64,000 bases of DNA, from contig CALVWJ010000001.1 of the NCBI GenBank assembly GCA_944366945.1, forward strand, positions 1 to 64,000, written 5' to 3'. The stretch is from an uncultured Clostridia bacterium (GTDB taxonomy: Bacteria > Bacillota > Clostridia > Christensenellales > CAG-138). The position numbers were made by a program, and so were the translations under genes. The notes under the pieces are model-generated. The model worked only from the letters and a program-made list of their open reading frames with translations. It was not told where the DNA came from and did no database searches. The first letter of the stretch is position 1. Every line of letters begins with the position of its first letter. This document shows, one piece after another, positions 10,520-39,916 of the stretch.

Positions 10520-10544
10520 AAAGCGTAATTGAACGATGTTTGCG

Positions 10545-10795: not shown

Positions 10796-10827
10796 GTGAA
10801 CCGAATAGAAACAGGAGGATTGAGCCA

Positions 10828-13464
<2,637 letters not shown>

Positions 13465-13609
13465 AGGCAATCGCGGCTTTTCGAGCACCTAAGGGATGGC
13501 GAACACTGCTTTTGCGGAAATTACGGGTGCGCGTAGCGGCTCTGCGCATGCTGTTTGGCATCGCTTGAACTGCAAGCTGGGCGCTGAAACAAAAAACATG
13601 CAATAGGTT

Positions 13610-15689: not shown

Positions 15690-15789
15690 AAACGTTTTCA
15701 TGAAAAAGCGAGTTGCTTTCCGCACGCATAAAGGCGCTTGCAAAGGGCGCAGTTGTTCATGTGGAAGTTGCAGCATTTGAAAAGCGCGC

Positions 15790-15828
15790 CACGCCGGCAG
15801 GAAGAAATGCCTGCCGGCGTGTTTTTTT
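15790..15828 (+). terminator. Rho-independent terminator after the cupin gene
   Basis: cgccggcagg-aagaaatg-cctgccggcg followed by tgtttttttgg. Confidence 0.65.
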
Positions 15829-15877
15829 GGAATTGCCCGGAAAGAATAGGGGGAGAGTTTTTAGGAGGGCATGTGGA

Positions 15878-18800: not shown

Positions 18801-21800
18801 AAGGAGGAGCAGGGATTCCTGCCGCCGGATAATTTTCAAGAGGCCCCTCTAGGCGTTACGGTCGACAACACCTCTCCCACCAATATTGGTATGGCAATGC
18901 TTTCCACCGTGGCGGCACACCTGCTTGGACTGATCGATGTACAATGCCTCATTCTGCGCCTTGAACGCATGGCAGAGCGCATCGAGGATGCGGAAAAATG
19001 GAACGGCCATCTCTATAATTGGTATGCGTTGGAACCGTTTGTTCCGCTTGAACCGCGTTATGTTTCCACGGTGGACAGCGGTAACTTGGCCGCATGCCTG
19101 CTCGCATGCGAAAGCGCGCTTCTCTCATTTGGCACGAAGGAGGCAGAAACGCTGGCGGGCCGCCTGCGCGCACTTGCGGAGGGTATGGATTTCCGCGCAC
19201 TGTACGATCCGAAGAAAAAGCTATTCCACATTGGATTCGATTGCGTTTCCGGAACGCTTACGAAGTCCTGGTATGATCTGCTTGCCTCAGAAGCGCGCTT
19301 GACAAGCTTTACTGCGATCGCATTGCACCAGGTGGATGCGGAACACTGGCAAAACCTTTCCCGCCTGCTTGTGGATGCGGATGGCGGGAGAACGCTCATC
19401 TCCTGGAGCGGCACGATGTTTGAATATCTCATGCCCGCCCTCCTTACGGGGGTGGTGCCTGGGAGTCTTCTCGATGAAAGCTGCACGGCTGCAGTGCGCG
19501 CGCAGCGCGCGGCAGTGCCTGCAGGAACGCCGTGGGGCATTTCGGAATCGGGATACTATGCGTTTGACCGGGCGATGTTTTACCAATACCGCGCCTTTGG
19601 CGTGCGCGCAGTCGCGCTTTGCCCGGCGCGGGAACGGGAGCGCGTAATTGCACCATATGCTTCCATGCTTGCGCTCATGGCTGCCCCGCGGGCAGCAGTG
19701 GAAAACTTGATGCGCCTTGAGGCACTTGGAGCCCTGGGGAAATATGGATTTTATGAGGCTCTGGATTTTACGCCACAGCGCCTACGCGCAGAGGTGCCGT
19801 TTGAAACGGTGAAAAGCTACATGGCGCATCACCAAGGCATGAGCCTTTGCGCTGCGGCGAATGCCCTCACAGACGGCGCACTTGCAAAGTGCTTCCTCCG
19901 CGTGCCCGAAGTGCGCGCGATGAGCTTGTTGCTTGCGGAAAAACGGCCATCGCTTGCACTTACCATTCGTGCGTTCCGCAGTGCCAGCACAGGAGAGGAA
20001 AAACCGCTGCCACGCCGGGAAAGCAAGCCGCGCGTAGTCACGCGCCTGGGGGCTGTGCCGGAAACGCAGCTGCTCACAAATGGGCGCTATACCGTTTTTT
20101 TAACGGATCATGGCCTTTCTTACAGCCGCTGCGGCGAAACGCTGCTTACGCGATTCCGGCCAGATCCGTTGCGCGCGGATTCCGGCATCCATTTCCTCGT
20201 GCGGGATGGGGGGCAGGTCTGGTCCCTTGCGGGTGCGCCAGCTAATACGCAGGCAGATGCATACCGCGTAACGCTCGAGCCGTACAAGGTAACCTATGAG
20301 CGCAGGGATGGCAGCATTTCCTCGCGCCTTGCCGTCTGCGTATCTCCTCGCCATGACGGCGAGATACGACATCTGCTCCTTAAAAACGATGGCTTGGAAC
20401 CGCACGAGTTGGAAGTGGGCGCTTTTGCGGAGATTGCGCTTGCTACGCAGGAGGAAGACCTCGCCCATCCTGCGTTTGTGAAGCTTACCGTTGACGCGCA
20501 ATTGGAAGGAGATACGCTCCTTTTTACGCGCAGAGGGAAGAATGCCTGTTGGGCCTATGCGCGCCTTGCCGGCCCCGTAAAGCCCAAGTACGCGGTGGAT
20601 CGGCTTTCCTACCTGGGCCGTAACCGCACTTATGTGCAGGCTATGCAAACGCCTATGGTTACGCCGGAAACGGTTGCATCTCCCATCGAACCCGGGCTTT
20701 GCGCGCGTGCGAGCATCACCTTGAAGCCGGGGGAAAGCGCGGAATTTACGCTCCTTATCGGCATGGCGGAAAGCGAGAAAGCAGCGCTTTCGGAGGTAGA
20801 AGCCATGCAGGCTGAAGCGGGCGAAGCGTTTGACCTTGCCTGGGCACATGCAAACAGCGCCCTGCGTTTTCAAGGCATTGAACCTGGAAAGGCAGTGCTG
20901 TTTGAGCGTATTGCCGCACGGATCATTCTTGGCATTCCGCAGGGCCGCGCGCTTCCTGCCGGGCTATGCTTAGGCATCCCAGGGTTTTGGAAGCTTGGCA
21001 TTTCCGGAGATCTGCCTATCGTGCTGCTGCGCGTGGAACGGCATGCTTCCGTACGCATTGCAAAAACGCTGCTGGAACTGCATGCTTATTTACGCGCGCG
21101 CGGCGTTCGGTTCGACCTGGCATTGATTGGCGTCTATCCAAACGAATATGCGTGCGAGCTGCGCTTGCGCTTGCAGGACATGATCGAAGCCTGCGCAGGT
21201 GGAGAGGAGACCGTGCATCTTCTGCATGCCTATGCGCTGTCCGAAGCGGATCGCGCAACGCTTGAGACGCTTTGTCTCATCTGCGTAGATCCGAAAAAGA
21301 GTTTGGACCGCCAATTCCTTACGCCAGCTGCGCGGGAGATGCCAACACCTACCTTTACGCCGCGGCGGGAGGCACGCGGTGCATTTGCGCCCGAAGAGGA
21401 AAAACTACAGTTTTCAAATGGCTGTGGAGGATTTAATGCAGCGGGAGATGAATATGTGATCCGCCTTGCGCCGGGAGAAAGCACGCCGCTTCCCTGGGCA
21501 AACGTGCTTGCAAACGAGCGTTTTGGAACGCTTGTAACGGAAAGCGGGGGCGGATATACCTGGTGCGGGAATAGCCGGGAGCATAAGCTTACCCCGTGGG
21601 CAAACGATCCGGTACGTGATCCCAAAGGAGAAATCTTGTTGCTTTATGATTTGGATGACAGGACGGCGTGGACGCTCACGCAGGGGCCACTTTCGCGTGG
21701 TGCGCGCACGGAGACGCGCCACGGGTTCGGGTATACAAGTTTTGCTTCCGAAGCCGAGGAGCTTTCCGCAACGCTCCTGGTATTTGTGGATGCGGAGCAG

Positions 21801-23705
21801 CCTGTGAAATATTCGCTATTGACGTTGCACAACCCTATGCTGCGGGAGCGGCATGTGGGCGTGGTTTATGCGGCGGAATGGGTGCTTTCCAGCCTGCCGC
21901 ATCCCGAGGCGGTGCACACGCGCTTTGACGGCCACGCCTGCTATGCAGAAAATCTGCGGGAACCCGCTGCAACCCAGGCCTATATTGCCATGGCAGGCGG
22001 AGCGGATGCAGTAGAGTGTGCAACATGCCGGGAGGATGTGCTCTGCGGCGGCTGGGCGCGCGATGCCTGGGATGCTGTGGAAAACGCCTATGGAACGGGT
22101 TTTTGTGCGCTGCGCACGCAGCTTACGCTTGCCCCGGGTGAAACGCGCACCCTGGTGTTATTGATGGGCGAGGATACGCCGGAAACGATTGCCCCGCTTA
22201 TCTCCTTGGATGCGCACGCGGTGCAAGCGCGCCTCCAGATGGTAAAAGCACTCTGGCAGGCACGGCTTGCCGCCGTGCAGGTGCAGACGCCGGATCGGGG
22301 GATGAATGTGCTCCTCAATGGGTGGCTGCTTTACCAGACGTGGAGCGCCCGCGTGCTTGGCCGCACGGGGTATTACCAATGCGGCGGCGCCATCGGCTTT
22401 AGGGATCAGCTCCAGGATATGCTTTGCCTCCTGCATATGGATCCTGCGCGCGTGCGTGCACATCTGCTGTTGTGCGCTGCGCGCCAGTTCGAGGCAGGGG
22501 ATGTGCTGCACTGGTGGCATCCGCCGGCAAATGGCGTGCGTACCCACATCACAGATGATCGGCTGTTCCTGCCTTATGTGGCGCTTGCCTATGCGGAAGC
22601 CACGGGGGATGCATCCATCTGGGATGTGAGCGTGCCTTACCTTCAAGATAAACCCATTCCGGAAGGGGCGCGCGATCTGTATTGCGCGATGGAAGAAGGG
22701 GAGAAACAAGAGCCGATTTACCTGCACTGCGCACGGGCAATTGAGTGCACGCTTGCATTTGGCCCACATGGCTTGCCGCTGATGGGGGATGGCGATTGGA
22801 ACGACGGCATGGATCGAGTAGGAGAAGACGGCGGTGAAAGCGTCTGGCTCGGCATGTTCCTTGTGGATGTGCTTTCCCGTTTTGCACCGATTGCCGCACA
22901 GCGCGGAGATGATGCGCGCGCTGCGCATTATACCGCATCCGCAGAGCAGCTTCGCGCTGCATTGGAGGAGGCGGGCTGGGATGGCGCCTGGTACCGCCGG
23001 GCATATTTTGCAAACGGGGAGAGCCTCGGTTCACGCGGCAGCGCTGCTTGCGCGATCGATCTGCTCAGCCAGGCATGGGCTGCAATCTGCGGCCTTGCGC
23101 ATGCGCAGGAGGCGTTTGATTCTGCAATGGCGCTACTTGTAAACCGGGAAAATGGCCTGGTACGGTTGCTTGCACCACCGTTTGAACGACCAGATGCAAA
23201 CGTTGGGTATATCAGTAACTATCTCGCAGGCGTGCGGGAAAACGGCGGGCAGTATACACATGCTGCGGCATGGCTGCTGCGCGCGGCCTGCCGCTTGAAA
23301 AAGGCGGATTGCGCGCAGGAGCTTTTCTCCATGCTCAACCCAATCTCGCATGCGGATAGCACGTTTTCCATGCGGCGCTACAAAGCGGAGCCCTATGTGC
23401 TTGCCGGCGACGTTTATGCCGTGGGCCGTAACGCAGGGCGTGGCGGCTGGACCTGGTATACCGGCGCAGCCGGCTGGCTCTATACGGTTGTGCTTTCGGA
23501 TGTCCTTGGCGTGGTGCGGCGAGGGGAGCGCTTGTTTGTTTCGCCATGCACACAATTTCCGGAATACACCGTGCGCTACCGCTTTGGAAACGCAGTATAT
23601 GCAATCACGGTACGCGGCGGAGCGCAGGGGCCGCAGGATGGAATTCCACTTGTGGACGATGGCCTCATCCACAACCTTTTGATCGAGCCGGGGAAGGCTA
23701 CTTGA
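15878..23705 (+). CDS. Cyclic beta-1,2-glucan synthase-like giant membrane glycosyltransferase (GT84 domain + GH94 phosphorylase-like domain), about 2609 aa
   Basis: TAGGAGGG RBS 7 nt before the ATG at 15878. GT84-type DxD motif LTLDADTLLPPGA. TM clusters before and after the GT domain. GH94 signatures LISWSGTMFEYLMPAL and GGAIGFRDQLQDM. Overall Cgs/NdvB/ChvB architecture. Confidence 0.8.
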
Positions 23706-23736: not shown

Positions 23737-25662
23737 ATGACAAAGCAAACGCCTCCTGCATATCCATCCAATTTTCTGCCTACTACGGCTGCGGAACTTG
23801 CCGCACGCGGCATTGTGCAGCTTGATTTCGTATATATTATTGGCGATGCTTATGTAGACCACCCGAGCTTTGGGCCAGCGATCATCAGCCGCGTGCTCGA
23901 AAGCCACGGATACACGGTCGGCATCATTGCCCAGCCGGATTGGCACAGCGCAGAGGAAATGAAACGCCTGGGCCGGCCGCGTCTTGCGTTCCTTATCAGC
24001 GCGGGAAACATTGATTCCATGGTAAACCATTATACCTCCGCAAAAAAACGCCGCTCCAGCGATGCTTATACTCCTGGCGGCGAAGCGGGCAGGCGGCCCG
24101 ACCGCGCGACGATCGTTTATGCGAACCGCGCGCGGGAGGCTTATCGTGGCGTCCCGGTGGTGATAGGAGGCATTGAAGCAAGCCTTCGGCGCTTTGCACA
24201 TTACGATTATTGGGATGATAAAGTGCGAAGGAGCATCCTTGCAGATTCTGGCGCCGATCTCCTCATTTACGGCATGGGCGAACGGCAAATTGTTGAGATT
24301 GCAGATGCGCTTGCAAGTGGCTTGCCAATCGAGCAGGTTACCTACATAAATGGAACCTGCTACATGACCCGTTCCTTGGAACAGGTTTATGAATACGAGC
24401 AAATCGAAAGCTATGAGGCTGTTGCACGGGATAAAAAAGCATATGCATCCGCCTTTATGACGCAATATAGGGAACAGGATGCCATTCGGGGGAAACGCCT
24501 CGTGCAGCCGCATGGGGATGGGTTCCTCGTGGTCAACCCGCCGGCCGCTCCGTTGACGACAGAAGAACTTGACGCAGTCTATGAACTCCCTTACATGCGC
24601 GCGCCACACCCTTCTTATCAAAAAGAGATACCGGCCCTTTTCGAGGTAAAGTTTTCACTTACTTCTTGCCGCGGGTGTTTTGGCGCATGCGCATTCTGCG
24701 CGCTTACGTTCCACCAAGGCCGGGTAATTTCCGCGCGCAGCCATGCATCGCTCCTGCGGGAGGCGGAGCTGCTCACCCGCCAGCCGGATTTTAAAGGAAA
24801 CATCCACGATGTCGGCGGCCCAACGGCGAACTTCCGCCAGCCAGCCTGCAAAAAGCAGCGCAAAAACGGCGTGTGCGCCGACCGGCAATGCCTGGGCTTT
24901 ACGCCCTGCAAAAACCTCGAGGTGGATCATCGGGACTATATCGCATTGCTGCAAAAACTTTCAGCGGTGCCCGGAGTAAAGCATGTCTTTGTTCGTTCGG
25001 GAATTCGCTATGATTATGTGATGTATGATAAAAGCGATGCCTTTTTGCGCACGCTGATTCAAAACCATGTTTCGGGGCATCTCAAAGTGGCGCCAGAACA
25101 CGTATCCGATCGGGTGCTGCTGCGCATGGGCAAGCCTGCCTGCACCCTTTATGACCGCTTTGTTGCAAAATTCATGCAGCTGAACCGCAACCTTGGTAAA
25201 GAGCAGTATATTGTGCCATATTTCATGTCTTCTCACCCTGGAAGCGATCTCGCAGCAGCGGTAGAACTTGCTGAATACCTAAAGCGAACTGGGCAGCGGC
25301 CGGAGCAAGTGCAGGATTTTTATCCAACGCCCGGCACGCTTTCCACATGCATGTATTATACTGGATTTGACCCGCGCACGGGTGAGCGGGTTTACGTGCC
25401 TCGGAGTGCATCTGAAAAGGCAATGCAACGTGCGCTGATGCAATACTTTATGCCGCAATATCGAGCGCTTGCACGCAAAGCGCTCGAGAAGGCAGGCAGG
25501 GAGGATCTCATCGGCTTTGGAAAACATGCACTTGTACCCCCGGCTAAACAGAATATAGAAGGAAATGAAAATAAAAAATGCAGGAAAACAAGACGGAACT
25601 TGCATGAAAAGGGCGGAAAAATGCTGCGAAATACGCGTAGAGACGCTTCAAGGCACCGCTGA
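23737..25662 (+). CDS. ygiQ: YgiQ family radical SAM protein (UPF0313)
   Basis: N-terminal YgiQ-specific domain (IIGDAYVDHPSFG) and radical SAM core (SCRGCFGACAFC). Confidence 0.85.
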   Translation: MTKQTPPAYPSNFLPTTAAELAARGIVQLDFVYIIGDAYVDHPSFGPAIISRVLESHGYTVGIIAQPDWHSAEEMKRLGRPRLAFLISAGNIDSMVNHYTSAKKRRSSDAYTPGGEAGRRPDRATIVYANRAREAYRGVPVVIGGIEASLRRFAHYDYWDDKVRRSILADSGADLLIYGMGERQIVEIADALASGLPIEQVTYINGTCYMTRSLEQVYEYEQIESYEAVARDKKAYASAFMTQYREQDAIRGKRLVQPHGDGFLVVNPPAAPLTTEELDAVYELPYMRAPHPSYQKEIPALFEVKFSLTSCRGCFGACAFCALTFHQGRVISARSHASLLREAELLTRQPDFKGNIHDVGGPTANFRQPACKKQRKNGVCADRQCLGFTPCKNLEVDHRDYIALLQKLSAVPGVKHVFVRSGIRYDYVMYDKSDAFLRTLIQNHVSGHLKVAPEHVSDRVLLRMGKPACTLYDRFVAKFMQLNRNLGKEQYIVPYFMSSHPGSDLAAAVELAEYLKRTGQRPEQVQDFYPTPGTLSTCMYYTGFDPRTGERVYVPRSASEKAMQRALMQYFMPQYRALARKALEKAGREDLIGFGKHALVPPAKQNIEGNENKKCRKTRRNLHEKGGKMLRNTRRDASRHR

Positions 25663-25753
25663 AAAGGAATGCGTGAAAACCACAAAATTAAAAATGCATT
25701 CTTCATTTCTGACTTTCTTTTCACGATTCCTTATGATAAAATCATAGAAAGTA

Positions 25754-25815: not shown

Positions 25816-26304
25816 ATGGACAATGGACAGGGCGCTCGGAAAGAACTTTACGAGCAGCTGGACAAAGTCATCCTGCAATGGAAAGACCAGCCCGGTGGGC
25901 TACTCCCGATCATGCAGAATGCGCAGGAGATTTTTGGTTGTGTGGATGAAGATGTGCAGCACTATATCTCCAAAGAGGTGGGCGTTCCCGTATCTACTAT
26001 TTATGGTGTAGCAACGTTCTATTCCCAGTTTACATTGCAACCCAAAGGAAAATATGCGATCGGCCTTTGCCTTGGAACGGCCTGCTATGTGCGTGGCTCT
26101 CAGCTCGTTATGGACGAACTGGTCAAACAGCTTGGCGTCGAGCCTGGCCATACTACGCCGGACGGCCTGTTTACCTTGGATGCCACCCGTTGCATCGGCT
26201 GCTGCGGCCTTGCCCCCGCAATGATGATTAATGACGACGTTTATGGAAAAGTAACGCCGGAGGAAGTATCTGGCATTCTGAATAAATATCGCCAAATCGG
26301 CTGA
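25816..26304 (+). CDS. NuoE-like [2Fe-2S] thioredoxin-fold subunit (HydC/HndA-type flavoprotein small subunit)
   Basis: Cys pattern C..C....CxxxC (GLCLGTACYVRG...RCIGCCGLAP) typical of the NuoE 24-kDa family. GGAGGG RBS. Confidence 0.85.
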   Translation: MDNGQGARKELYEQLDKVILQWKDQPGGLLPIMQNAQEIFGCVDEDVQHYISKEVGVPVSTIYGVATFYSQFTLQPKGKYAIGLCLGTACYVRGSQLVMDELVKQLGVEPGHTTPDGLFTLDATRCIGCCGLAPAMMINDDVYGKVTPEEVSGILNKYRQIG

Positions 26305-26321
26305 AAAACGAGGAGCACCGC

Positions 26322-26684
26322 GTGAAAGTATCCCAAATTGCGCAGATCCTGCGGGCAGAAGTCCGTTGCGGGGAAGAAAACCTTGGGTTGGATATTCCCT
26401 ATGCCGTCGCAAGCGATATGATGAGCGATGTGCTGGTTTGCAACGACTCTGACCGCGTGCTGATTTCCGGGCTTTGCACAGTGCATACTGTACTTACGGC
26501 CCAGATTTTGGATTTGCGCGCCATCGTATTCGTGCGCGGCAAGCGCCCTACCCCGGAAATGATCGAGGTAGCAGAGGAAAATGGGATCACTGTCCTCTGC
26601 ACGGATATGAGCATGTTTAACACCTGCGGCGAGCTCTACAAGCATGGCATGAAAGGACGCGCGCGCCCGGATGGAACGGATTGA
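26322..26684 (+). CDS. DRTGG domain protein
   Basis: 120-aa protein with the arrangement LISGLCTVHTVLTAQILDLRAIVFVRG typical of DRTGG domains. Sits in the hydrogenase regulatory cluster. Confidence 0.55.
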   Translation: MKVSQIAQILRAEVRCGEENLGLDIPYAVASDMMSDVLVCNDSDRVLISGLCTVHTVLTAQILDLRAIVFVRGKRPTPEMIEVAEENGITVLCTDMSMFNTCGELYKHGMKGRARPDGTD

Positions 26685-27114
26685 AAAAGAGACGACCTAT
26701 CAGGAAACACGCAAAGTTGAGAAGGGGGATTTTGCTGCAGCAGGGCAGATTTCCGCTTCGTATAAAAACATGCTGAAACGGTTGGGAGTAGACTCCAAAG
26801 TGGTGCGCAGGCTTGCCATTGCTTCTTATGAAGCAGAAATCAATCTTGCGATTCACACGTTTGGCGGAAGTATGACCATTACGGTTTACCCCGACCACAT
26901 TGTTCTCGTCGTTAAGGATACGGGTCCGGGCATTGCAGATATCGGCCTTGCGATGCAGGAAGGCTATTCTACCGCATCGGAACAGGTGCGCATGCTGGGA
27001 TTTGGTGCCGGAATGGGACTTCCAAATATGAAACGCTGCTCGGATACTTTTGAGATCACCTCTGAGTTAGGAATTGGAACAACGATTGAAATGGGCTTTC
27101 TTTTAACTCCATAA
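26671..27114 (+). CDS. GHKL-type ATP-binding protein (anti-sigma-factor/RsbW-like Ser kinase fold)
   Basis: N, G1 and G2 boxes (EAEINLAIHT, VKDTGPGIAD, GFGAGMGLPN). Confidence 0.65.
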   Translation: MERIEKETTYQETRKVEKGDFAAAGQISASYKNMLKRLGVDSKVVRRLAIASYEAEINLAIHTFGGSMTITVYPDHIVLVVKDTGPGIADIGLAMQEGYSTASEQVRMLGFGAGMGLPNMKRCSDTFEITSELGIGTTIEMGFLLTP

Positions 27115-27175
27115 ATCGTAATGGAATCAATCCGCCTGGAGCGGTCCAGCGCACACGCTGGCAGAAGGAGTGCGT

Positions 27176-28459
27176 ATGGATAAAAAACAGATCTACCATA
27201 GCGTTAAACTGGAAAAGGACAAATGCGTAGGTTGCACAACATGCTTAAAGCGGTGCCCGATGGAATGCATCCGTGTGCGTAACGGAAAGGCGAGTATCCT
27301 TTACGAACTGTGTATTGATTGCGGCGTATGCGTGCGCATTTGCCCGCACAACGCGAAGGTCGCGCAGACGGATCCGATCAATGAGATCTTCCGTTACAAA
27401 CACCGCATTGCACTGCCTGCGCCAACGCTTTATGGGCAATTTCGAAACGTTACAAGCGTAGACCATGTACTCAGTGCCTTGCTTTCACTCGGGTTTAGCG
27501 ATGTGTTTGAGGTAGCACGCGCAGCGGATATTGTATCTGCCACCATGCGCGAGCTGCTGAAGACCACAACGGCCAGGCCGCTGATTTCTTCTGCTTGCCC
27601 TGCGGTCGTAGCTCTTATCCAGGTTCGTTTCCCGGAGTTGCTTCCAAATGTTGCCAACGTGCTTTCCCCCAAGGAGGTGGCAGGCAAGATGGCAAAGGAG
27701 GAATACTCCAGGGAGCACAATGTCCCTATTGAAGAAATTGGTGCGTTTTTTATCACCCCATGCCCGGCAAAAATGGCTAGCATCCATTCTGGACGGAGTG
27801 GCTATGTGGATGGCGCAATTGCAATTCAAGATATTTATGGTCTGCTTTCTTCCCAGCTTAGACAGCCTGTTTCGGAGAAAATTCGTAAGAAACGTCATGC
27901 GAGCTGGCAGGGCGTCAATTGGGCCACCTATGGCGGCGAGTGCGCATCGCTCCATCGTAGCAATACGCTTTCGGTGGATGGCATCCATAATGTAATTTAT
28001 GCGCTTGAGGAAATTGAAAACGGAAAGCTGGATGATCTTGAGTTCTTTGAAGGCTCTGCCTGTGAAGGCGGTTGTGTGGGTGGGCCGCTGGTGTTTGAAA
28101 ATGCCTTTGTTGCCCAAAACACGGTGCGCAAACTTGTGGAGCGCATGCGGGAAGAGGATGGCGATCTTCCGCCTGCCCTGCCTGCACCGCGGGATGACAT
28201 TTTGACGGATCCGTGTGCTCCGAGGGATACGCTAAAGCTTTCTGATAATATTGCTGAGGCAATCAGCATGATGGAGCGCATTGACGAACTTACAAAAACC
28301 TTTAAGGGGCTTGATTGCGGCTCCTGCGGCAGCCCAACCTGTCGCACGCTTGCAGAGGACATCGTTCTCGGGTATGCCAAGGAAGTGGACTGCGTGTTTA
28401 AGCTTAAGGAAAAGGTAGAGCAGCTTGCACGCCAGATGGTGGATTTGACCAACCTGTAG
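27176..28459 (+). CDS. HydS-like putative sensory [FeFe] hydrogenase: 2x[4Fe-4S] ferredoxin domain, degenerate H-cluster domain, C-terminal Cys4 motif
   Basis: N-terminal CVGCTTCLKRCP and CIDCGVCVRICP. H-cluster motifs altered relative to catalytic HydA: L1 SSACP instead of TSCCP, L2 TPCPAKM, L3 EGSACEGGCVGGP instead of MACPGGC. C-terminal CGSCGSPTC(x16)C. Confidence 0.75.
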   Translation: MDKKQIYHSVKLEKDKCVGCTTCLKRCPMECIRVRNGKASILYELCIDCGVCVRICPHNAKVAQTDPINEIFRYKHRIALPAPTLYGQFRNVTSVDHVLSALLSLGFSDVFEVARAADIVSATMRELLKTTTARPLISSACPAVVALIQVRFPELLPNVANVLSPKEVAGKMAKEEYSREHNVPIEEIGAFFITPCPAKMASIHSGRSGYVDGAIAIQDIYGLLSSQLRQPVSEKIRKKRHASWQGVNWATYGGECASLHRSNTLSVDGIHNVIYALEEIENGKLDDLEFFEGSACEGGCVGGPLVFENAFVAQNTVRKLVERMREEDGDLPPALPAPRDDILTDPCAPRDTLKLSDNIAEAISMMERIDELTKTFKGLDCGSCGSPTCRTLAEDIVLGYAKEVDCVFKLKEKVEQLARQMVDLTNL

Positions 28460-28487
28460 CAGGGAAGAAAACGTATGGGAGGCAAAC

Positions 28488-28823
28488 ATGACCGTTGCGC
28501 AATTGATAGAACCGCTGGAATTGACGTTGCTAACGCCGCAAACAAGCCTTGAACGCGAGGTAACAGGTGGCTGTGTCTGCGATCTGCTCAGCTTTGTGAT
28601 GGCGCGCGGGGATGCGGGCATGGCCTGGATCACTGTGCAGACACACTTGAACGTGATCGCGGTTGCTAGCTTGCATGAGTTTTCCTGCGTGATTGTGGCC
28701 GAAGGCTCTGCGGTGGAGCCGGAAACGCTTGCTAAAGCTACGGAAGAGGATATTCCGGTGCTGCGCAGCGCGCTTTCCGAATATACGCTCAGCGGCAGAC
28801 TGTATGCGCTAGGCGTGCGCTGA
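28488..28823 (+). CDS. DRTGG domain protein (second copy)
   Basis: 111 aa, similar architecture to 26322-26684 (WITVQTHLNVIAVASL...VIVAEG). Confidence 0.5.
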   Translation: MTVAQLIEPLELTLLTPQTSLEREVTGGCVCDLLSFVMARGDAGMAWITVQTHLNVIAVASLHEFSCVIVAEGSAVEPETLAKATEEDIPVLRSALSEYTLSGRLYALGVR

Positions 28824-28829
28824 AAAACG

Positions 28830-29537
28830 ATGAAAAGCCCGGTGGACCTGCACATCCACTCCTGCCTTTCGCCCTGCGCAGATGATGATATGACCCCCTG
28901 GAACATCGTGGGCATGGCAAAACTCAAAGGGCTGGCTGCCGTTGCTGTGTGCGATCACAACAGTGCGCGCAACCTACCTGCAGCATGCAAGGCGGGCAGG
29001 GAATACGGCGTGTGCGTGCTGCCCGGAATCGAGGTCACGAGCCGGGAGGATGTGCACCTGCTCTGCTATTTTGAAACGCTTAGCCAAGCCATGGATATGG
29101 GAATGCGGATCGAACGTGAACAGCCCCACATCAAGAACAAACCGGAGCTGTTTGGCCATCAGATCCTTGTGGATGAAGATGATACATTTTTGGGGGAGGC
29201 AGAACATCTCCTGCTTGCGGCGTGCAACCTTTCCATTTCGGATCTTGCGCAGGCTGCATGGGAGCTTGGCGGCGTGATGGTTCCGGCGCACATTAACAAG
29301 GGGGCGAACAGCCTTTTGCCGGTGCTGGGCATGCTGCCCGAAAATATCGCGTTGCCAACGGTGGAAATCTTTCGGACGGTGCCGCATCGCGCGGCGGGAA
29401 AGCTCTGCCTTCATGCGAGCGACGCACACACGCTTGTTGATATCCGCGAAGCGGAGGACGCCTGCGTGCTGGAACTTCAAGAACTTACGCCGGCAGCCCT
29501 TATCCAGGTGCTGCGCAAGGGAAAGGGGGAAACGTGA
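28830..29537 (+). CDS. PHP domain phosphoesterase
   Basis: N-terminal HIHS and DHN metal-binding motifs (VDLHIHSCLSPCADD...AVCDHNS) characteristic of the PHP family. Confidence 0.7.
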   Translation: MKSPVDLHIHSCLSPCADDDMTPWNIVGMAKLKGLAAVAVCDHNSARNLPAACKAGREYGVCVLPGIEVTSREDVHLLCYFETLSQAMDMGMRIEREQPHIKNKPELFGHQILVDEDDTFLGEAEHLLLAACNLSISDLAQAAWELGGVMVPAHINKGANSLLPVLGMLPENIALPTVEIFRTVPHRAAGKLCLHASDAHTLVDIREAEDACVLELQELTPAALIQVLRKGKGET

Positions 29538-30094
29538 AGGAGATTTCGCTGCATATACTTGACCTGGCACAAAATTCCATCCGTGCAGGTGCGGGCAATG
29601 TGCTGATCCGCATCGAGGAAGACAGCGCTGCGGATACCTTTTCGGTCTCCCTTACCGACGATGGCTGCGGCATGGGCGCGGAGATGGCAAAATCGGTGCA
29701 AAACCCGTTTGTGACCACGCGCACCACCCGCAAGGTCGGGTTGGGCATTCCGCTGTTTAAGGCTGGCTGCGAGAACTGCGCAGGCACATTTACGCTGGAA
29801 AGTGAATTGGGGCGCGGGACACGCATTGCCGGCACCTATCAGCGCAGCCATATTGACCGGCCGCCGCTTGGCAACATTGCGGACACCATTGCAATGCTCA
29901 TCGCGGCCAATCCAAAGCTTCACCTTAGATATGAGCATAAGCTCAACGGCGAGGAATACGCACTTGATACGGCGGAGATCCAGGAGATCCTGGGCGAGGT
30001 TCCGCTGGATACGCCGGAAGTGACCGCCTTTATCGCCGAATTTATCCATAGCAACGAATCAGAATTAGAATCAACGGAGGTACAGAAATCATGA
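29534..30094 (+). CDS. GHKL-type ATP-binding protein (second histidine-kinase-like ATPase)
   Basis: HATPase_c boxes (HILDLAQNSIRAG, LTDDGCGMG, GLGIPL). Translationally coupled to the PHP gene. Confidence 0.6.
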   Translation: MKEISLHILDLAQNSIRAGAGNVLIRIEEDSAADTFSVSLTDDGCGMGAEMAKSVQNPFVTTRTTRKVGLGIPLFKAGCENCAGTFTLESELGRGTRIAGTYQRSHIDRPPLGNIADTIAMLIAANPKLHLRYEHKLNGEEYALDTAEIQEILGEVPLDTPEVTAFIAEFIHSNESELESTEVQKS

Positions 30095-30459
30095 AGACAC
30101 TCAAAGAGTTAGAGGCGATCCGGCAGAAAACGCTCAATGAGCTCAATCTGCGCAAAAACCGCGAGGATGGTATTCGCGTGGTGGTCGGCCTTGCCACCTG
30201 CGGCATCGCGGCGGGCGCGCGCCCGGTCATGGCCGCCTTTGTGGACGAGGTGAATAAGCGCCAGCTTACCAACGTCACGGTTTCCCAAACTGGCTGCATC
30301 GGACTTTGCCGCTTGGAACCCATCGTGGAAGTCTATCTCCCAGGCCAGGAGAAGGTAACCTATTGCAAGGTAACCCCGGATCAAGTGGGGCGCATCGTAT
30401 CGGAGCATATCGTCAACGGGAACCCCGTTATGGAATACACCATCGGCAATTTTGAGTAA
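30091..30459 (+). CDS. Thioredoxin-like [2Fe-2S] ferredoxin domain protein
   Basis: Cys pattern LATCGIAAG...GCIGLCRLEP typical of the NuoE-like/HndB 2Fe-2S fold. Confidence 0.7.
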   Translation: MKTLKELEAIRQKTLNELNLRKNREDGIRVVVGLATCGIAAGARPVMAAFVDEVNKRQLTNVTVSQTGCIGLCRLEPIVEVYLPGQEKVTYCKVTPDQVGRIVSEHIVNGNPVMEYTIGNFE

Positions 30460-30493
30460 AAATCACTGAAGGACAAGAAGGAGAGTTAAGAAG

Positions 30494-32284
30494 ATGATCT
30501 ACAGGTCGCATGTGCTGGTCTGCGCGGGCACGGGTTGCACGTCCTCCAATTCCCTGCGCATCATTGAGAACTTCCATAAAAAACTGGAAGAAACCGGATA
30601 CGACAAGGAAGTCCAGGTCATCCGCACGGGCTGCTTCGGCCTTTGTGCGGCAGGCCCGATCGTTGTGGTTTACCCTGAGGGCGTATACTACAGCCACGTT
30701 AAACCGGAGGATGTTGAGGAGATCGTAAACGAGCACATCATCAAGGGACGCCCCGTGCAGCGCCTCATTTACAAGGAGCATGATGAAAGCGGCGTCAACA
30801 CCACGCTCAACGATTCTGATTTCTATAAAAAGCAGCACCGCATCGCCTTGCGCAACTGCGGCATGATCGACCCGGAAAACATCGATGAATATATTGCCTT
30901 TGACGGCTATAAAGCGCTCGGGAAGGTGCTCACCGAGATGACCCGCGATGAGGTTATCGACACCGTGATCCGCTCCGGCCTGCGCGGCCGTGGCGGCGGC
31001 GGATTCCCGACCGGCTTGAAGTGGAAATTTGCTAAAGCGCCCGAAAGCGATGTTAAATACGTTTGCTGCAATGCAGACGAAGGTGACCCAGGCGCATTCA
31101 TGGATCGTTCCGTTCTTGAAGGCGATCCGCATTCTGTGCTGGAAGCTATGACGATTGCGGGCTATGCAATTGGCGCACAGCAGGGCTATATTTATGTGCG
31201 TGCGGAATATCCCATCGCAGTAAAACGCCTGCGCGTTGCTATCGGGCAGGCCAGGGAATACGGCCTGCTGGGCGATAACATCATGGATACTGGCTTCAAA
31301 TTTGACATTGACCTCCGCCTTGGCAGCGGCGCATTCGTTTGCGGCGAAGAAACCGCGCTGCTTGCTTCCATTGAAGGCGGCCGCGGCGAGCCGCGCCCGC
31401 GCCCCCCATTCCCGGCGGTAAAGGGGCTTTTTGGCAAACCGACCCTGCTCAATAACGTAGAAACCTATGCAAACATCTGCCAGATCATCTTGAACGGGCC
31501 GGAATGGTTTGCCTCCATGGGCACCGAAAAGAGCAAGGGCACGAAGGTGTTCGCGCTGGGCGGAAAGATCAACAACACGGGCCTTGTAGAAATCCCCATG
31601 GGCACTACGCTGCGTGAAGTCATCTATGAGATTGGCGGCGGCATCCCGAACGGGAAAAAGTTTAAAGCCGCGCAAACCGGTGGCCCCTCCGGCGGTTGCA
31701 TCCCAGCACAACATTTGGATGTGCCTATCGATTATGACAACTTGATCTCCATTGGCTCCATGATGGGATCGGGCGGCATGATCGTTATGGACGAAGACAA
31801 CTGCATGGTGAACATCGCGAAATTCTTCCTTGAATTCACGGTGGATGAATCCTGCGGCAAATGCCCGCCCTGCCGAATCGGTACGCGGCGCATGCTCGAG
31901 ATGCTGGAAAAGATCACGAGCGGAAAGGGCGAACCGGGCGATATCGAAAAGCTGGAGAAGCTCGCTTACAACATCAAAGCGGCAGCTCTCTGCGGCCTTG
32001 GGCAGACCGCGCCGAACCCCGTGCTTTCTACCATCCGCTATTTCCGCGATGAATATGAAGCGCATATTTATGAAAAGCGTTGCCCGGCTGGCGTGTGCAA
32101 GGCACTGCTTCAGTATACCATCGATCCGGAAAAGTGCCGCGGGTGCAGCCTCTGCGCGCGCAAGTGCCCGGCTGGCGCAATCTCCGGTGAAATCAAGAAG
32201 CCGTTTGTGATCGATCCCGCGAAGTGCATTAAGTGCGGCGCGTGCATGGAAGCGTGCAAATTTGGTGCGATCAGCAAGAAATAA
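30494..32284 (+). CDS. NuoF-like NAD(P)H-binding flavoprotein subunit (HydB/HndC-type; N-terminal 2Fe-2S, FMN/NADH core, C-terminal 2x[4Fe-4S])
   Basis: GRGGGGFPTG (FMN/NADH motif), ESCGKCPPCR, C-terminal CRGCSLCARKCP and CIKCGACMEACK. Confidence 0.9.
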   Translation: MIYRSHVLVCAGTGCTSSNSLRIIENFHKKLEETGYDKEVQVIRTGCFGLCAAGPIVVVYPEGVYYSHVKPEDVEEIVNEHIIKGRPVQRLIYKEHDESGVNTTLNDSDFYKKQHRIALRNCGMIDPENIDEYIAFDGYKALGKVLTEMTRDEVIDTVIRSGLRGRGGGGFPTGLKWKFAKAPESDVKYVCCNADEGDPGAFMDRSVLEGDPHSVLEAMTIAGYAIGAQQGYIYVRAEYPIAVKRLRVAIGQAREYGLLGDNIMDTGFKFDIDLRLGSGAFVCGEETALLASIEGGRGEPRPRPPFPAVKGLFGKPTLLNNVETYANICQIILNGPEWFASMGTEKSKGTKVFALGGKINNTGLVEIPMGTTLREVIYEIGGGIPNGKKFKAAQTGGPSGGCIPAQHLDVPIDYDNLISIGSMMGSGGMIVMDEDNCMVNIAKFFLEFTVDESCGKCPPCRIGTRRMLEMLEKITSGKGEPGDIEKLEKLAYNIKAAALCGLGQTAPNPVLSTIRYFRDEYEAHIYEKRCPAGVCKALLQYTIDPEKCRGCSLCARKCPAGAISGEIKKPFVIDPAKCIKCGACMEACKFGAISKK

Positions 32285-32298
32285 CCTCAAACAAGCAA

Positions 32299-32332
32299 AA
32301 GAGCATCTCCTGCCGAGGAGATGCTCTTTTTT
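32299..32332 (+). terminator. Strong rho-independent terminator after hydB-like gene
   Basis: aagagcatctcc-tgccga-ggagatgctctt followed by tttt. Confidence 0.7.
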
Positions 32333-33045
32333 CGCGCGGCATCTCCTTTGGAAATTTAGGGGATCCCAGAGCAGTGGCTTGAAACGGATCTGGCGGCGCG
32401 AAAGACCATGCAAACCTTGCAAAAGTGATATCCGGCACATCCCAGACCACCTAAGAGCATCTAACCAAACTTTATTTTGGCGCAGACGCTCGATCATGCG
32501 CGAAAGAAGAGAGGCCATCGCCTGCGGAACCAAGGAAAACGGAATTGCGCTGCATAAGCAGCACCCGCTCTCTGCTGCATTGCCCAGGATACGGCCGAAA
32601 ATTCACACCCCGTTTAGGGGCAGTGGCCTAAAAAACATCGCTCTTGAAGGGGGATCTTGTGGCAACCGCATCGGCATCGCCGAGAGCCGTGCCACAGCGG
32701 GCTTGCCTCTCCCTCTTTCGCGCATCTGTCGCAGATTTGCCCGCTTCAAGGGCGCAGCGCCAAGTGCAGCTCCATTGTTCTGGCGCAAAGCAGGCGGACG
32801 CAGGCAGACTATCCTCTTCCCAAGCATCCAACACAGCGCCGAGGTGAATGGAACCGAACTTGACCGGCGGTTTCCTCTGTTATCGCCTCTTTTAGGGAGG
32901 CATGCTCAATTTTGCTTTGCAATGGAAGAACTTGGGCACAGGGCAACTTGGGCGTATTCGCCGCACAAAGCATGCCGAACCGCACAGGGTGCGGCGCATC
33001 GAATGCGTTTAGGGACAATTTTCAAAGGATGGACTTGAAAAACGG

Positions 33046-33061
33046 GTTAGAATATGCTAAC
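33046..33061. promoter_or_regulatory. Candidate operator: imperfect palindrome overlapping a putative promoter of the ZIP transporter
   Basis: gttagAATATGctaac lies about 40 bp upstream of the ZIP start, next to a TTGAAA -35-like hexamer. Confidence 0.25.
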
Positions 33062-33097
33062 TTTGTATGGAGCGATATTGCATCCGGAGGAAATACG

Positions 33098-33886
33098 ATG
33101 CACGAAACTATAAAGCTATCCATTGGGGTGTTTATTCCGTTCCTTGGGACGGTGCTCGGGGCTGCAACGGCCCTTTTTATGAAAAAAGCCATGCATGTGC
33201 GCTTGCAAAAGCTTCTGTTGGGCTTTGCGGCGGGGGTGATGATTGCGGCTTCCGTATGGTCATTGCTGATTCCCGCCATTGCGATGGCAGAAGCGGCAGG
33301 AAAGGTAGCCTGGGTGCCTGCGGCGACAGGTTTTTTGGTAGGGATCGGCTTCCTGCTCGCATTGGATACGTTGATCCCCCATCTGCATCTGAACGCTACA
33401 ATGCCGGAAGGGCGCCCCAGCATGCTGGAAAGGTCGCTTATGCTGGTGCTTGCGGTCACCTTGCATAATATTCCGGAAGGAATGGCAGTTGGCGTTGTGT
33501 TCGCCGGGATGCGCGCTGGAAATGAAGCGATCACAGCCGCTGGCGCGTTCGCGCTCGCCGCCGGGATCGCGATTCAAAATTTCCCGGAGGGCGCGATCAT
33601 CTCCATGCCCTTGGTGAACCTTGGTGTTTCGCGGAAAAAGGCGTTCGGCTATGGCGTTCTTTCCGGGGCTGTGGAGCCGATCGGCGCGGTGCTCACGATT
33701 TTGCTGACCTCCCTTGTAACGCCGATCCTGCCTTATATCCTGGCGTTTGCCGCAGGCGCGATGCTTTATGTTGTAATAGAAGAACTGATCCCGGAAGCGC
33801 AGCAAGGGGAACATTCGAATCTCGGCACCATTGGCGCGGCGTTGGGCTTTGCGCTGATGATGGTGCTGGATGTTGCGCTTGGATGA
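33098..33886 (+). CDS. ZIP family metal (Zn/Fe) transporter, ZupT-like
   Basis: GGAGGAAA RBS. 8 TM with HNIPEG and HN.PEGA motifs (LHNIPEGMAVG, IQNFPEGAIIS). Confidence 0.85.
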   Translation: MHETIKLSIGVFIPFLGTVLGAATALFMKKAMHVRLQKLLLGFAAGVMIAASVWSLLIPAIAMAEAAGKVAWVPAATGFLVGIGFLLALDTLIPHLHLNATMPEGRPSMLERSLMLVLAVTLHNIPEGMAVGVVFAGMRAGNEAITAAGAFALAAGIAIQNFPEGAIISMPLVNLGVSRKKAFGYGVLSGAVEPIGAVLTILLTSLVTPILPYILAFAAGAMLYVVIEELIPEAQQGEHSNLGTIGAALGFALMMVLDVALG

Positions 33887-34097: not shown

Positions 34098-34898
34098 TTA
34101 AAGCTTATGTTCCATTTCCGCGCGCCAATGGAGGATCGCTTCAAGGACGCCGCCGCCGATGGCAAGCGCCTTATCGGAAACCGTGAAGCAATGCTCCCGC
34201 GCGCAACGCGGGTCAATATCGCCGGCTTTGGTACCAGCGGAGATGGAGATGCCGTCGGGCAGGATGCCGCGCAGGCAGCCTGCGATTTCCGCACGGAGTG
34301 GGACGCCATCCACATCTGCAACAATGGAGCCTGCGGTGACCATGGCCCCGATGGGGAAATGGCCATGAAATATGCCAGCGGCCGGCGCATAGAGCACGCG
34401 CTCGCGCGTATATCCTCCAACGTTGCCGGGAATGCCGGTATTGGGGAGGGCGGAACCTTCATAAATGCAGCGCCCAAGGGTATGCCCGCGCATCGTTTCG
34501 ATCACGCAGTGGCAGTCCACGCCTGCCGTAAAGCCCGGCCCCAGCGCAACGACGAGCGGCGCATCTGAAATGCGTGTACCGAGATTGCGCTTTGCAAGCA
34601 TCGCGTCGACGAGCACATCGGGATGGTATCGCGCGATGCTTGTTCCCGTGGGATCAACGATTACGGCCGGTACATGCGCATGAAGCGCCGCGCGCACCTC
34701 CGCTTCGGTTTGGCACAAATGGGAAGTTACGCTTTCTACTGTGGCAGAACCGCGGTAAACGGCGTCTGAAAATGCCACCGTACGCCGCACGGCAGTCGGC
34801 GCTGCAAGTTCGGTCAGAATCAATGAAAAGCCGCAGCGGTGCAGCCGCATGGCCACACCTGTTGCAAGGTCGCCTGCGCCGCGTATTAAAACCAGCAT
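34098..34898 (-). CDS. yqeB: YqeB family selenium-dependent molybdenum hydroxylase system protein
   Basis: N-terminal MLVLIRGAGDLATGVAMRLHRCGF Rossmann-like start as I recall it for the YqeB family. GAGAGGA RBS. Adjacent to a yqeC-like gene. Confidence 0.6.
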   Translation of the reverse strand: MLVLIRGAGDLATGVAMRLHRCGFSLILTELAAPTAVRRTVAFSDAVYRGSATVESVTSHLCQTEAEVRAALHAHVPAVIVDPTGTSIARYHPDVLVDAMLAKRNLGTRISDAPLVVALGPGFTAGVDCHCVIETMRGHTLGRCIYEGSALPNTGIPGNVGGYTRERVLYAPAAGIFHGHFPIGAMVTAGSIVADVDGVPLRAEIAGCLRGILPDGISISAGTKAGDIDPRCAREHCFTVSDKALAIGGGVLEAILHWRAEMEHKL

Positions 34899-35581
34899 CC
34901 AATCACATCCTCTCGTAATGCGCAAACGGCGGCGGGGTATCCTGCCGCACGAAGCTCCTTTGCAATAGCGTCCCCCTGCGCGTGCAGTTCCGGCGTATCC
35001 GCCTGGTTGAGCAGCGCTACCGCGGGGCATGCTGCGCTGCTATGCTGGAACGCTCGAAGCATAAGGCGCACAATATCTTCTTCCACAATGCAATGCGCCG
35101 GATCCATGCCGGCTTCCACGCACCGGTGCAGCACTTCGCCGGCCGGCTTGCCAAGCGCAGAAAGGCCGGCAATCTGGATGACAAGCCCTGTATTTGCAGG
35201 GATACAGGGTTCAGAATCCCTGTGCCATTTCAGCGGCATGTGCCGTGAACCGTCCGCCTCGCAAAGCACATAGTCGAACGCTGCTGCCGCAGCCGTAAGA
35301 TATTGCGGCGCAAGCCCGGTCATTTTGCCGTTGCCGTTTGGGTATCCCATAAGGACGAGCTGCGCACGCTGTGCGGCAGCGGCGGCTTCTTCCGGTGTAG
35401 CAGGTGCGCAAAATGTTGTGCCTGCCGGAGGGGGAAAGGCAAGGTGCGTCGTGGTAGTAAGCAAAACAGAGGCACCAGCTTCGGCAAGCCATTGCCCAAG
35501 CTTGAAAAGGAGCGTCGTTTTGCCACCGCCCCCAATGATTGCCGTAATCTTTGGCAGGCTGCAGGGAAATGAAAACCGCAT
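34886..35581 (-). CDS. yqeC: YqeC family selenium-dependent hydroxylase accessory protein (P-loop)
   Basis: ITAIIGGGGKTTLLFKL P-loop at the N-terminus. Size and position next to yqeB match the YqeC marker family. Confidence 0.6.
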   Translation of the reverse strand: MRFSFPCSLPKITAIIGGGGKTTLLFKLGQWLAEAGASVLLTTTTHLAFPPPAGTTFCAPATPEEAAAAAQRAQLVLMGYPNGNGKMTGLAPQYLTAAAAAFDYVLCEADGSRHMPLKWHRDSEPCIPANTGLVIQIAGLSALGKPAGEVLHRCVEAGMDPAHCIVEEDIVRLMLRAFQHSSAACPAVALLNQADTPELHAQGDAIAKELRAAGYPAAVCALREDVIGCWF

Positions 35582-39912: not shown

Positions 39913-39916
39913 TGCT

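Follow-up and report, generated by a model that had tools for sequence, protein, structure and literature searches.

A group D [FeFe] hydrogenase and its conserved gene neighbourhood in a Christensenellaceae-like gut bacterium

Introduction

Which kind of [FeFe] hydrogenase does the gene hydS encode, and what might it do in its host? hydS is a single open reading frame (ORF) on the plus strand, at positions 27176-28459 of a 64,000-nucleotide stretch of DNA from an uncultured Clostridia bacterium of the Christensenellales (positions 1 to 64,000 of contig CALVWJ010000001.1, assembly GCA_944366945.1), which is hereafter called the window. An initial annotation, made from the letters alone, took its product for a HydS-like, non-catalytic enzyme of the group C type that putatively senses H2. 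According to the data presented here it is close to certain that HydS is a group D (subclass M2e) [FeFe] hydrogenase and an ortholog of TamHydS from Thermoanaerobacter mathranii, the prototype of this group (Land et al. 2020, PMC8163306; PMC10407848; PMC13104023). It is an ordinary, typical member of an already described, low-activity, presumed H2-sensing class, and its gene almost always lies within a module of five genes.

The M2e enzymes of group D, with TamHydS as prototype, have two N-terminal [4Fe-4S] motifs, an H-domain that lacks the relay cysteine and, towards the C-terminus, a Cx2Cx4Cx16C site; a PAS domain is absent (PMC8163306). The methionine M353 is replaced in them by Ser or Thr (PMC8163306). 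Group D hydrogenases are model enzymes for the tuning of the H-cluster by its protein shell, and the literature openly calls both their function in the cell and the route by which they signal unknown (PMC8163306, PMC13104023). In the human gut, the heritable Christensenellaceae produce H2 that feeds Methanobrevibacter (PMC7002349).

Results and Discussion

HydS has the domains and modified motifs of a presumed sensory hydrogenase

The 427 codons of hydS, which give a product of 427 amino acids, begin with an ATG at 27176, 5 nt 3' of the Shine-Dalgarno sequence GAAGGAG; an in-frame GTG at 27170 is an improbable start because it overlaps that same sequence. The gene and the features within it are:

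27176..28459, plus strand: hydS, group D (M2e) [FeFe] hydrogenase of 427 amino acids (Pfam, identity to TamHydS, tree, AlphaFold2 fold)
27224..27346, plus strand: N-terminal F-domain with two [4Fe-4S] motifs (sequence and Pfam Fer4 families)
27584..27601, plus strand: L1 motif ISSACP, I137-SSAC141P (HMMER and MAFFT alignments)
27752..27775, plus strand: L2 motif ITPCPAKM, I193-TPC196PAK199M (HMMER and MAFFT alignments)
28049..28087, plus strand: L3 motif EGSACEGGCVGGP, E292-GSAC296EGGC300VGGP (alignments and conservation among homologs)
28316..28393, plus strand: C-terminal Cx2Cx4Cx16C [4Fe-4S] site, C381/C384/C389/C406 (Pfam PF04060)

The two ferredoxin-type motifs, the three altered H-cluster motifs and the extra C-terminal Cys4 site described in the initial annotation were all recovered. 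Pfam places the ferredoxin motifs within residues 12-60 (C17xxC20xxC23xxxC27P and C46xxC49xxC52xxxC56P), and their eight cysteines are invariant among 63 homologs. Residues 76-304 match Fe_hyd_lg_C (E = 1.5e-34) and residues 378-408 match PF04060, 'putative Fe-S cluster' (E = 3.6e-9), with the protein ending at residue 427, which is the group D architecture. The C-terminal motif, C381-x2-C384-x4-C389-x16-C406, is found in 86/88 homologs, and its spacing, together with the flanking acidic residues D380, E394, D395 and D405, matches the C379...C404 site of TamHydS exactly. More than 7,500 proteins share the architecture and length of HydS at E <= 1e-10.

The positions of the H-cluster motifs were taken from a HMMER alignment to the D. 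desulfuricans hydrogenase and from a MAFFT alignment that includes sequences of groups A3, B and D, and in both the motifs fall on the canonical positions. In the MAFFT alignment the group A signatures TSCCP, MPCxxKK and ExMxCxxGCxxGGGQP are altered. In L1, Ala140 occupies the position of the CpI proton-relay residue C299 and Cys141 is a ligand of the [4Fe-4S]H cluster; the sequence ISSACP is present in 82 of 88 distinct homologs. In L2, Thr194 stands at the M353 position (Thr in 57 and Ser in 25 of the 88 homologs), while Cys196 and Lys199, the CpI K358, are kept. In L3, Glu292 corresponds to TamHydS E289, Ser294 takes the M497 position, and Cys296 and Cys300 are ligands. All four H-cluster cysteines (C141, C196, C296 and C300) and the cyanide-binding Lys199 are therefore retained. 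The group A proton path has gone: C299 is replaced by A140, E279 by M124 and E282 by L127, and R286 falls in a gap. The conservation of these motifs across 63 to 88 homologs is far above chance.

As a refutation of its reading, the initial annotation had named a phylogeny placing HydS within catalytic group A, with the motif changes as alignment artefacts. The check was run and gave the opposite result, so that this alternative is already refuted and its residual probability negligible. Only the shared fold speaks for it. The motifs align without gaps at the canonical positions and are therefore no artefacts of alignment. The NCBIfam group A model TIGR02512 gives HydS 97.8 bits against a cut-off of 405.95, and the group A6 model 78.5 bits against 765; the group B1 model TIGR04105 gives 165.7 bits against 450. 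Aligned with HydS, the best solved group A enzyme reaches about 70 bits, and the solved group A enzymes are 17-23% identical to HydS. HydS is about 22% identical to the group A3 HydA proteins encoded beside its homologs and about 30% to a group B enzyme encoded at one of the loci (L072). All bootstraps (200/200) of a neighbour-joining tree with 23 sequences from group D, 14 from group A3 and one from group B recovered the group D clade, with HydS and the TamHydS ortholog inside it, apart from the group A3 sequences. The AlphaFold2 model of HydS, built on an alignment of 63 sequences (predicted local distance difference test, pLDDT, 88.3; predicted template-modelling score, pTM, 0.86), has [FeFe] hydrogenases as its best fold matches in the PDB, with TM-scores of 0.62-0.68 at 17-23% identity; no group C or D structure is among the PDB matches listed for the model.

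HydS is an ortholog of TamHydS

HydS and TamHydS have the same domain order and a similar length (427 and 435 amino acids), and are 49% identical over 423 amino acids (412 bits, E = 2e-146). The TamHydS protein used here was rebuilt from a coding sequence that had been read by machine from the supplement of PMC13104023; it carries the published residue at 17/17 positions named in the papers, and the native ortholog of T. thermocopriae JCM 7501 is 99% identical to it. L1 is identical in the two proteins, and both have a hydroxyl residue at the M353 position, Thr in HydS and Ser in TamHydS. The group D salt-bridge and cluster-tuning residues R30, R32, K35, K58, D378, E392, D393 and D403 correspond to R33, R35, K38, K61, D380, E394, D395 and D405 of HydS, and S386, another group D residue named in the literature, is also present. 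The proton path E252, E289 and D265 (TamHydS numbering), said to be exclusive to group D, is found as E255, E292 and D268.

The sole departure from the published group D signature is Tyr252, at the position of TamHydS S249, where Ser or Thr was looked for. According to the literature this position is only moderately conserved; it is Tyr, Phe or Ala in the clade to which the window belongs and mostly Ser elsewhere. Judged by its sequence, HydS thus has every group D feature except that at S249, and lacks those that define groups A, B and C. The two proteins also differ at the M497 position, which is Ser in HydS and Leu in TamHydS, and their hosts differ as well, that of HydS being a mesophilic, Christensenellaceae-like gut bacterium and not a thermophile.

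Some oddities are shared by the HydS proteins of the window clade: Tyr or Phe at the S249 position (Tyr252, 27929-27931), Ser at the M497 position (Ser294, 28055-28057), an extra cysteine, Cys31 (27266-27268), in the sequence CPMEC beside the first cluster motif, and a deletion of three residues after L2. The last two also set HydS apart from TamHydS.

That HydS belongs instead to group C (M2f), as the initial annotation proposed, is very improbable. Group C includes TmHydS of Thermotoga maritima, R. albus HydS and T. saccharolyticum HfsB, and like HydS these proteins have two N-terminal [4Fe-4S] motifs, Ala in place of the relay cysteine C299 and a Cx2Cx4Cx16C site, are of low activity and are presumed to be regulatory. 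They differ in having a C-terminal PAS domain, Gly at the M353 position and no group D proton path; the PAS domain is lacking in group D, and the M353 position distinguishes TmHydS (Gly) from the M2e enzymes (Ser or Thr) (PMC8163306, PMC10407848). HydS has no Pfam match to a PAS domain and ends 21 residues after C406; its residue at the M353 position is Thr, the proton-path residues that the literature reserves for group D are in place, and the protein is orthologous to TamHydS and syntenic with it. Since no group C member was in the tree, these four points are what separates HydS from group C. A DNA pattern derived from the published mutagenesis primers for T. maritima HydS, sought as a group C reference, had no match in the genome contigs, and that gene had probably been codon-optimised. 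In the database HydDB there is no group D, all sensory types being entered as group C, and only in that scheme is the label of the initial annotation acceptable; where PAS-bearing and PAS-less enzymes are separated, HydS goes to group D. The assignment to a presumed sensory branch and not to group A was correct. By contrast, the proposal that the Cys4 site replaces the PAS domain did not hold, because group C enzymes have both and group D enzymes simply lack the PAS domain. The term 'non-catalytic' was also too strong, because TamHydS interconverts H+ and H2 at low rates.

The identical 427-residue protein occurs in the public gene calls of more than 100 metagenome assembly blocks, mainly from the ENA and Logan assemblies. 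Its 90%-identity cluster includes an entry from a Christensenella sp. metagenome-assembled genome (MAG) that is annotated only as '4Fe-4S binding protein'.

hydS lies in a tight operon of nine genes

hydS is the fourth of nine plus-strand genes at 25816-32284, in the order hydC-DRTGG1-ATPase 1-hydS-DRTGG2-PHP-ATPase 2-hydD-hydB, with overlaps or short gaps between them:

25709..25737, plus strand: promoter-like site 5' of hydC, consensus match only (weak)
25816..26304, plus strand: hydC, NuoE-like [2Fe-2S] subunit, first gene of the operon (Pfam 2Fe-2S_thioredx, E = 5.7e-50)
26322..26684, plus strand: DRTGG-like small protein 1, 120 amino acids (weak Pfam DRTGG and Hpr_kinase_N matches)
26671..27114, plus strand: GHKL ATPase 1, SpoIIAB-like putative Ser/Thr kinase, 147 amino acids (Pfam HATPase_c and HATPase_c_2)
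28488..28823, plus strand: DRTGG-like small protein 2, 111 amino acids (Pfam Hpr_kinase_N, 27 bits, plus DRTGG)
28830..29537, plus strand: PHP-family metal-dependent phosphoesterase, 235 amino acids (Pfam PHP)
29534..30094, plus strand: GHKL ATPase 2, histidine-kinase-like, 186 amino acids (Pfam HATPase_c, E = 3e-12)
30091..30459, plus strand: hydD, small thioredoxin-like [2Fe-2S] ferredoxin (weak Pfam and NCBIfam 2Fe-2S matches)
30494..32284, plus strand: hydB, NuoF-like flavin/FeS subunit of bifurcating hydrogenases (Pfam Complex1_51K, NADH_4Fe-4S and Fer4)
32297..32336, plus strand: strong intrinsic terminator, GAGCATCTCC...GGAGATGCTC then T7, which ends the operon (sequence)

Three of these genes, hydC, hydD and hydB, are clear orthologs (54-89% identical) of subunit genes of the HydABC(D) bifurcating hydrogenases of C. 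subterraneus, A. woodii, T. kivui and T. maritima. The hydC and hydB products are 54% and 74% identical to the Thermoanaerobacter proteins, and that of hydD is 59-81% identical to HydD orthologs. The two DRTGG-like proteins have an invariant D-x-x-S motif in common (D32-x-x-S35 in the first and D32-L-L-S35 in the second), and the Thermoanaerobacter ortholog of the first exceeds the Pfam cut-off for DRTGG. ATPase 1 matches the NCBIfam model for anti-sigma F factor at 3.7e-13 (49.6 bits, under the cut-off of 135), and its closest PDB sequence is SpoIIAB. The PDB neighbours of the PHP protein are PHP phosphoesterases, and conservation extends to its metal ligands (H8, H10, D42/H43, E68, H76, H154, D198 and H200) as well as to the N, G1 and G2 boxes of both ATPases. 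With their ATP-binding boxes and metal ligands conserved, kinase-like ATPases and phosphoesterase alike are predicted to be active. ATPase 2 has orthologs in all canonical hydC-k2-hydD-hydB-hydA arrays, where it normally stands between hydC and hydD.

The promoter-like site is weak evidence of a start of transcription, because such sites are no commoner here than in shuffled sequence. A candidate operator for Rex that overlaps it (25707-25726, three mismatches) was rejected as a chance match, with 45 of 100 shuffles giving at least as many matches. No RNA elements were found near the operon at the Rfam gathering thresholds.

A five-gene module surrounds hydS in most loci

The gene context was surveyed with profile hidden Markov models in 80 metagenomic loci and in genomic ones, with copies of the window left out and with the loci having enough flank as denominators; the loci were picked by HydS similarity (44-80% identity), so that the survey covers the nearer part of the family. 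ATPase 1 lies directly 5' of hydS in 77/77 loci and the first DRTGG gene lies upstream in 74/77. Downstream of hydS, the second DRTGG gene was found in 66/72 loci, the PHP gene in 64/72, hydB in 31/39 and hydA in 27/39. hydS almost always lies, then, within a module of five genes for a DRTGG protein, the SpoIIAB-like ATPase/kinase, HydS, a second DRTGG protein and the PHP protein, usually upstream of hydC-ATPase-hydD-hydB-hydA. No DNA-binding protein belongs to the set conserved in these loci.

The TamHydS-type loci of Thermoanaerobacter, Caldanaerobacter and Thermoanaerobacterium hold orthologs of all nine genes of the operon, in the order DRTGG1-ATPase1-HydS-DRTGG2-PHP-HydC-ATPase2-HydD-HydB-HydA. 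Compared with them, the window operon has hydC shifted to its start and lacks hydA; the other neighbours (DRTGG, ATPase, DRTGG, PHP, hydC, ATPase, hydD and hydB) are orthologous. For the AraC regulator reported beside TamHydS, Pfam gave no match in the Thermoanaerobacter locus; what flanks hydS there are DRTGG-like genes, the second of which has a weak PucR-N match. The window locus is also not the T. saccharolyticum hfsABCD locus, since HfsB bears a PAS domain and in T. saccharolyticum the same module occurs at a group D locus of its own (L012). Other gene orders were seen as well, with hydC after hydD, with hydA upstream of the module, or with the module alone and not one hyd gene within 10 kb. 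The genes around the core of five thus vary in their order, and the lack of a nearby hydA is not unique to the window.

In all 30 HydA genes located beside a group D hydS (L006-L015, L021 and others), L1 reads TSCSPGW, with Cys at the CpI-299 position and Ser at CpI-300. A. woodii HydA1 (PDB 7q4v) shares this motif, and T. kivui HydA1 (8a6t) has TSCCPSW. In the openly searchable literature we found no paper linking DRTGG or PHP proteins with hydrogenases, and nothing useful on the hydrogenase content of Christensenella or on 'TSCSP'.

The operon of the window clade has no hydA

In the window and in eight related loci (L001-L005, L017, L097 and L098; HydS identity 61-100%), hydC heads the operon and no hydA follows hydB, whereas in most other lineages hydA lies directly 3' of hydB. 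One of these loci (L097) comes from a Christensenellaceae MAG, and two related loci, one of them with 80% HydS identity (L017) and the other being L038, were labelled human gut in the metagenome scan. A tblastn search with HydA found neither hydA, nor a remnant of it, nor any other hydrogenase gene 3' of hydB or anywhere in the window; hydC, hydD and hydB are present, and the hydA of the multimeric bifurcating hydrogenase is neither in the operon nor in the window. We infer that in this Christensenellaceae-like clade the nine genes form one tight operon and that the catalytic hydA must lie elsewhere.

This arrangement bears on a different function for HydS, that of a slow but genuine metabolic hydrogenase which would activate H2 as the partner of HydB, HydC and HydD and pass electrons via its F-clusters to the NAD(H)/ferredoxin module. 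We think this unlikely. It would agree with the ability of TamHydS to catalyse the interconversion of H+ and H2, with the place of hydS between hydC and hydB in a tight, hydA-less operon whose order is kept down to 61% HydS identity, and with the terminator after hydB. However, HydS lacks the N-terminal [2Fe-2S]/NuoG-like and C-terminal domains by which HydA docks to HydB and HydC, and which the HydA proteins of ten surveyed loci (L006 to L015) have. No clade-specific change restores a group A feature, as Ala140 and Thr194 stay and the group A proton path is absent, and the regulatory-type neighbours are intact. Moreover, in most lineages the module adjoins a complete hydABC, and several loci have the module without nearby hyd genes. 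A more extreme form, in which this clade lost hydA altogether and the group D enzyme itself took over H2 activation as a subunit feeding or gating the HydB/HydC flavin module, is quite improbable; if it were true, the result would be a hydrogenase complex with a built-in kinase/phosphatase switch and not a detached sensor.

A possible H2-responsive relay

We return to the reading that we prefer, a sensor with a relay of co-encoded partners, which we consider moderately probable as an overall picture, with any single step of the relay much less so. By analogy with TamHydS, HydS would bind a normal H-cluster and three accessory [4Fe-4S] clusters. Having no fast group A proton pathway, it would use the Glu255/Glu292/Asp268 route instead, and would therefore react slowly with H2 and hold a reduced H-cluster state, as suggested by the biochemistry of the prototype. 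TamHydS has a standard H-cluster ([2Fe]adt) and a high affinity for H2, turns over slowly, stabilises the Hred state and suffers little inhibition by CO, and H2 induces a change in its secondary structure. An H2-dependent redox or conformational state of HydS might then be read by the co-encoded proteins and modulate the adjacent SpoIIAB-like ATPase/kinase. The DRTGG-like proteins could be substrates or partners of this kinase, perhaps via their invariant Ser, or alternatively metabolite-binding modulators, and the PHP enzyme might undo the modification. Taken together, the ATPase, the DRTGG proteins and the PHP protein may form a kinase/phosphatase relay resembling partner switching. As there is no DNA-binding protein in the module and a second GHKL ATPase stands among hydC, hydD and hydB, the output would most likely be post-translational; it might be the control of a NAD(H)/ferredoxin-linked HydABC-type hydrogenase, possibly via ATPase 2, by which H2 production would be tuned to H2 partial pressure.

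Several points weigh against this picture. Neither the operon nor the window contains hydA, the presumed target. None of hydE, hydF and hydG lies within the window either, so that assembly of an H-cluster in the host is predicted from sequence; a radical-SAM gene (23737-25662) and a GTPase gene (55813-56424), considered as maturase candidates, encode instead a YgiQ-type protein and a small EngB-like protein. H2 sensing in vivo has been demonstrated for no group D enzyme and is putative for the whole class, and H2 fails to reduce the C-terminal cluster of TamHydS; the reading of HydS as an H2 sensor, which the initial annotation had proposed, thus holds as membership of a presumed sensory class and goes beyond the evidence as a demonstrated function. 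TamHydS is catalytically active, so a metabolic role is possible. The moderately conserved proton-path residue S249 is Tyr252 in HydS. The roles of the putative kinase, phosphatase and DRTGG proteins are suggested by gene linkage and motif conservation only, and among solved structures those nearest to the PHP protein are of nucleotide phosphoesterases and not of protein phosphatases. DRTGG domains, for their part, are better known as ligand-binding modules than as phospho-acceptors.

Some of these points could suggest that HydS, as a redox or iron-sulfur sensor, reports on the ferredoxin/NADH pool and not on H2, or that it is a Nar1-like scaffold without a functional [2Fe] subcluster. The three accessory clusters would suit such a protein, DRTGG-type domains elsewhere are metabolite-binding regulatory modules (by the Pfam description and a match to the regulatory region of a CBS-pyrophosphatase), there is no hydEFG in the window, and a Rex-like half-match lies 5' of hydC, though at chance level. 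On the other hand, there is little or no variation across the family in the four H-cluster cysteines, in K199 or in Glu255, which contacts adt; this fits selection for a working H-cluster, and the prototype TamHydS binds [2Fe]adt and reacts with H2. We therefore regard this explanation as improbable, and prefer the sensing of H2 itself.

Relation to known systems

A parallel in logic is the regulatory [NiFe] hydrogenase HoxBC of Cupriavidus necator with the kinase HoxJ and the regulator HoxA, where, as proposed for HydS, a slow, inhibitor-resistant hydrogenase reports H2 to a kinase. HoxBC differs from HydS in family and in cofactor, and HoxJ is a PAS histidine kinase working with a DNA-binding response regulator; the HydS module has no response regulator and no DNA-binding protein. 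Among [FeFe] enzymes, the TmHydS group is linked to PAS-type kinases and PP2C-type phosphatases, whereas HydS is linked to the set of DRTGG, SpoIIAB-like and PHP proteins. This set also recalls the SpoIIAB/SpoIIAA/SpoIIE and RsbW/RsbV/RsbU systems, in which a small GHKL ATPase resembling a Ser kinase stands beside small alpha/beta proteins and a phosphatase. Nevertheless, the HydS module has DRTGG-like proteins and not STAS, PHP and not PP2C, and no sigma factor. The neighbours of hydS do not show the features of partner switching of the SpoIIAB type, and the likeness would be in logic only. In comparison with the HydABC(D) hydrogenases, the window operon lacks the HydA gene, and HydS, only about 22% identical to HydA, has none of its docking domains.

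As a typical member of its family, hydS itself adds little to what is known. The survey of gene contexts is more useful, as the near-universal partner set (ATPase in every locus, the two DRTGG proteins and PHP in about 90%) provides concrete candidates for an H2-dependent phosphorylation. If true, an H2-responsive switch acting on the hydrogenase genes of Christensenellaceae would bear on their syntrophy with Methanobrevibacter. The near-universal five-gene module, with its candidates for the signalling route of group D, and the hydA-less, hydC-first operon of a gut Christensenellaceae-like lineage are points of secondary interest.

Other features of the window

Upstream of the operon lies a gene for a giant protein of 2,655 amino acids with glucoamylase-like and GH94 phosphorylase domains (15738-23705, plus strand), separated from it by the YgiQ-type radical-SAM gene (23737-25662). 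This giant gene is also found 5' of the operon in four of the related loci (L001, L003, L004 and L097), and is directly adjacent to it in L097. Downstream, a gap of about 770 nt (32337-33108) extends from the hydB terminator to a ZIP metal transporter gene. Its G+C content of about 55% is ordinary for the window, public gene calls in it are inconsistent, with small ORFs of 33 to 169 amino acids, and Rfam gave no match in 32285-33120 even at E <= 1.

Near the start of the window, the stretch 283-4759 brings together a DUF3801 protein gene, a pemK RNA motif (2831-2908), a tyrosine integrase gene (3358-4557) and, on the minus strand, a tRNA gene (4676-4759), and so resembles one end of a mobile element integrated at a tRNA. 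A T-box leader (102 bits; 10536-10764, plus strand) precedes the valyl-tRNA synthetase gene (10828-13464, plus strand); a 900-residue ORF on the opposite strand (10786-13488) has no family match and was rejected as a shadow ORF. Finally, genes for YqeC, XdhC-family and NTPase proteins stand at 34098-35581 and 39857-41496, on either side of an ABC transporter of the iron-siderophore type, which suggests an accessory cluster for a molybdenum hydroxylase.

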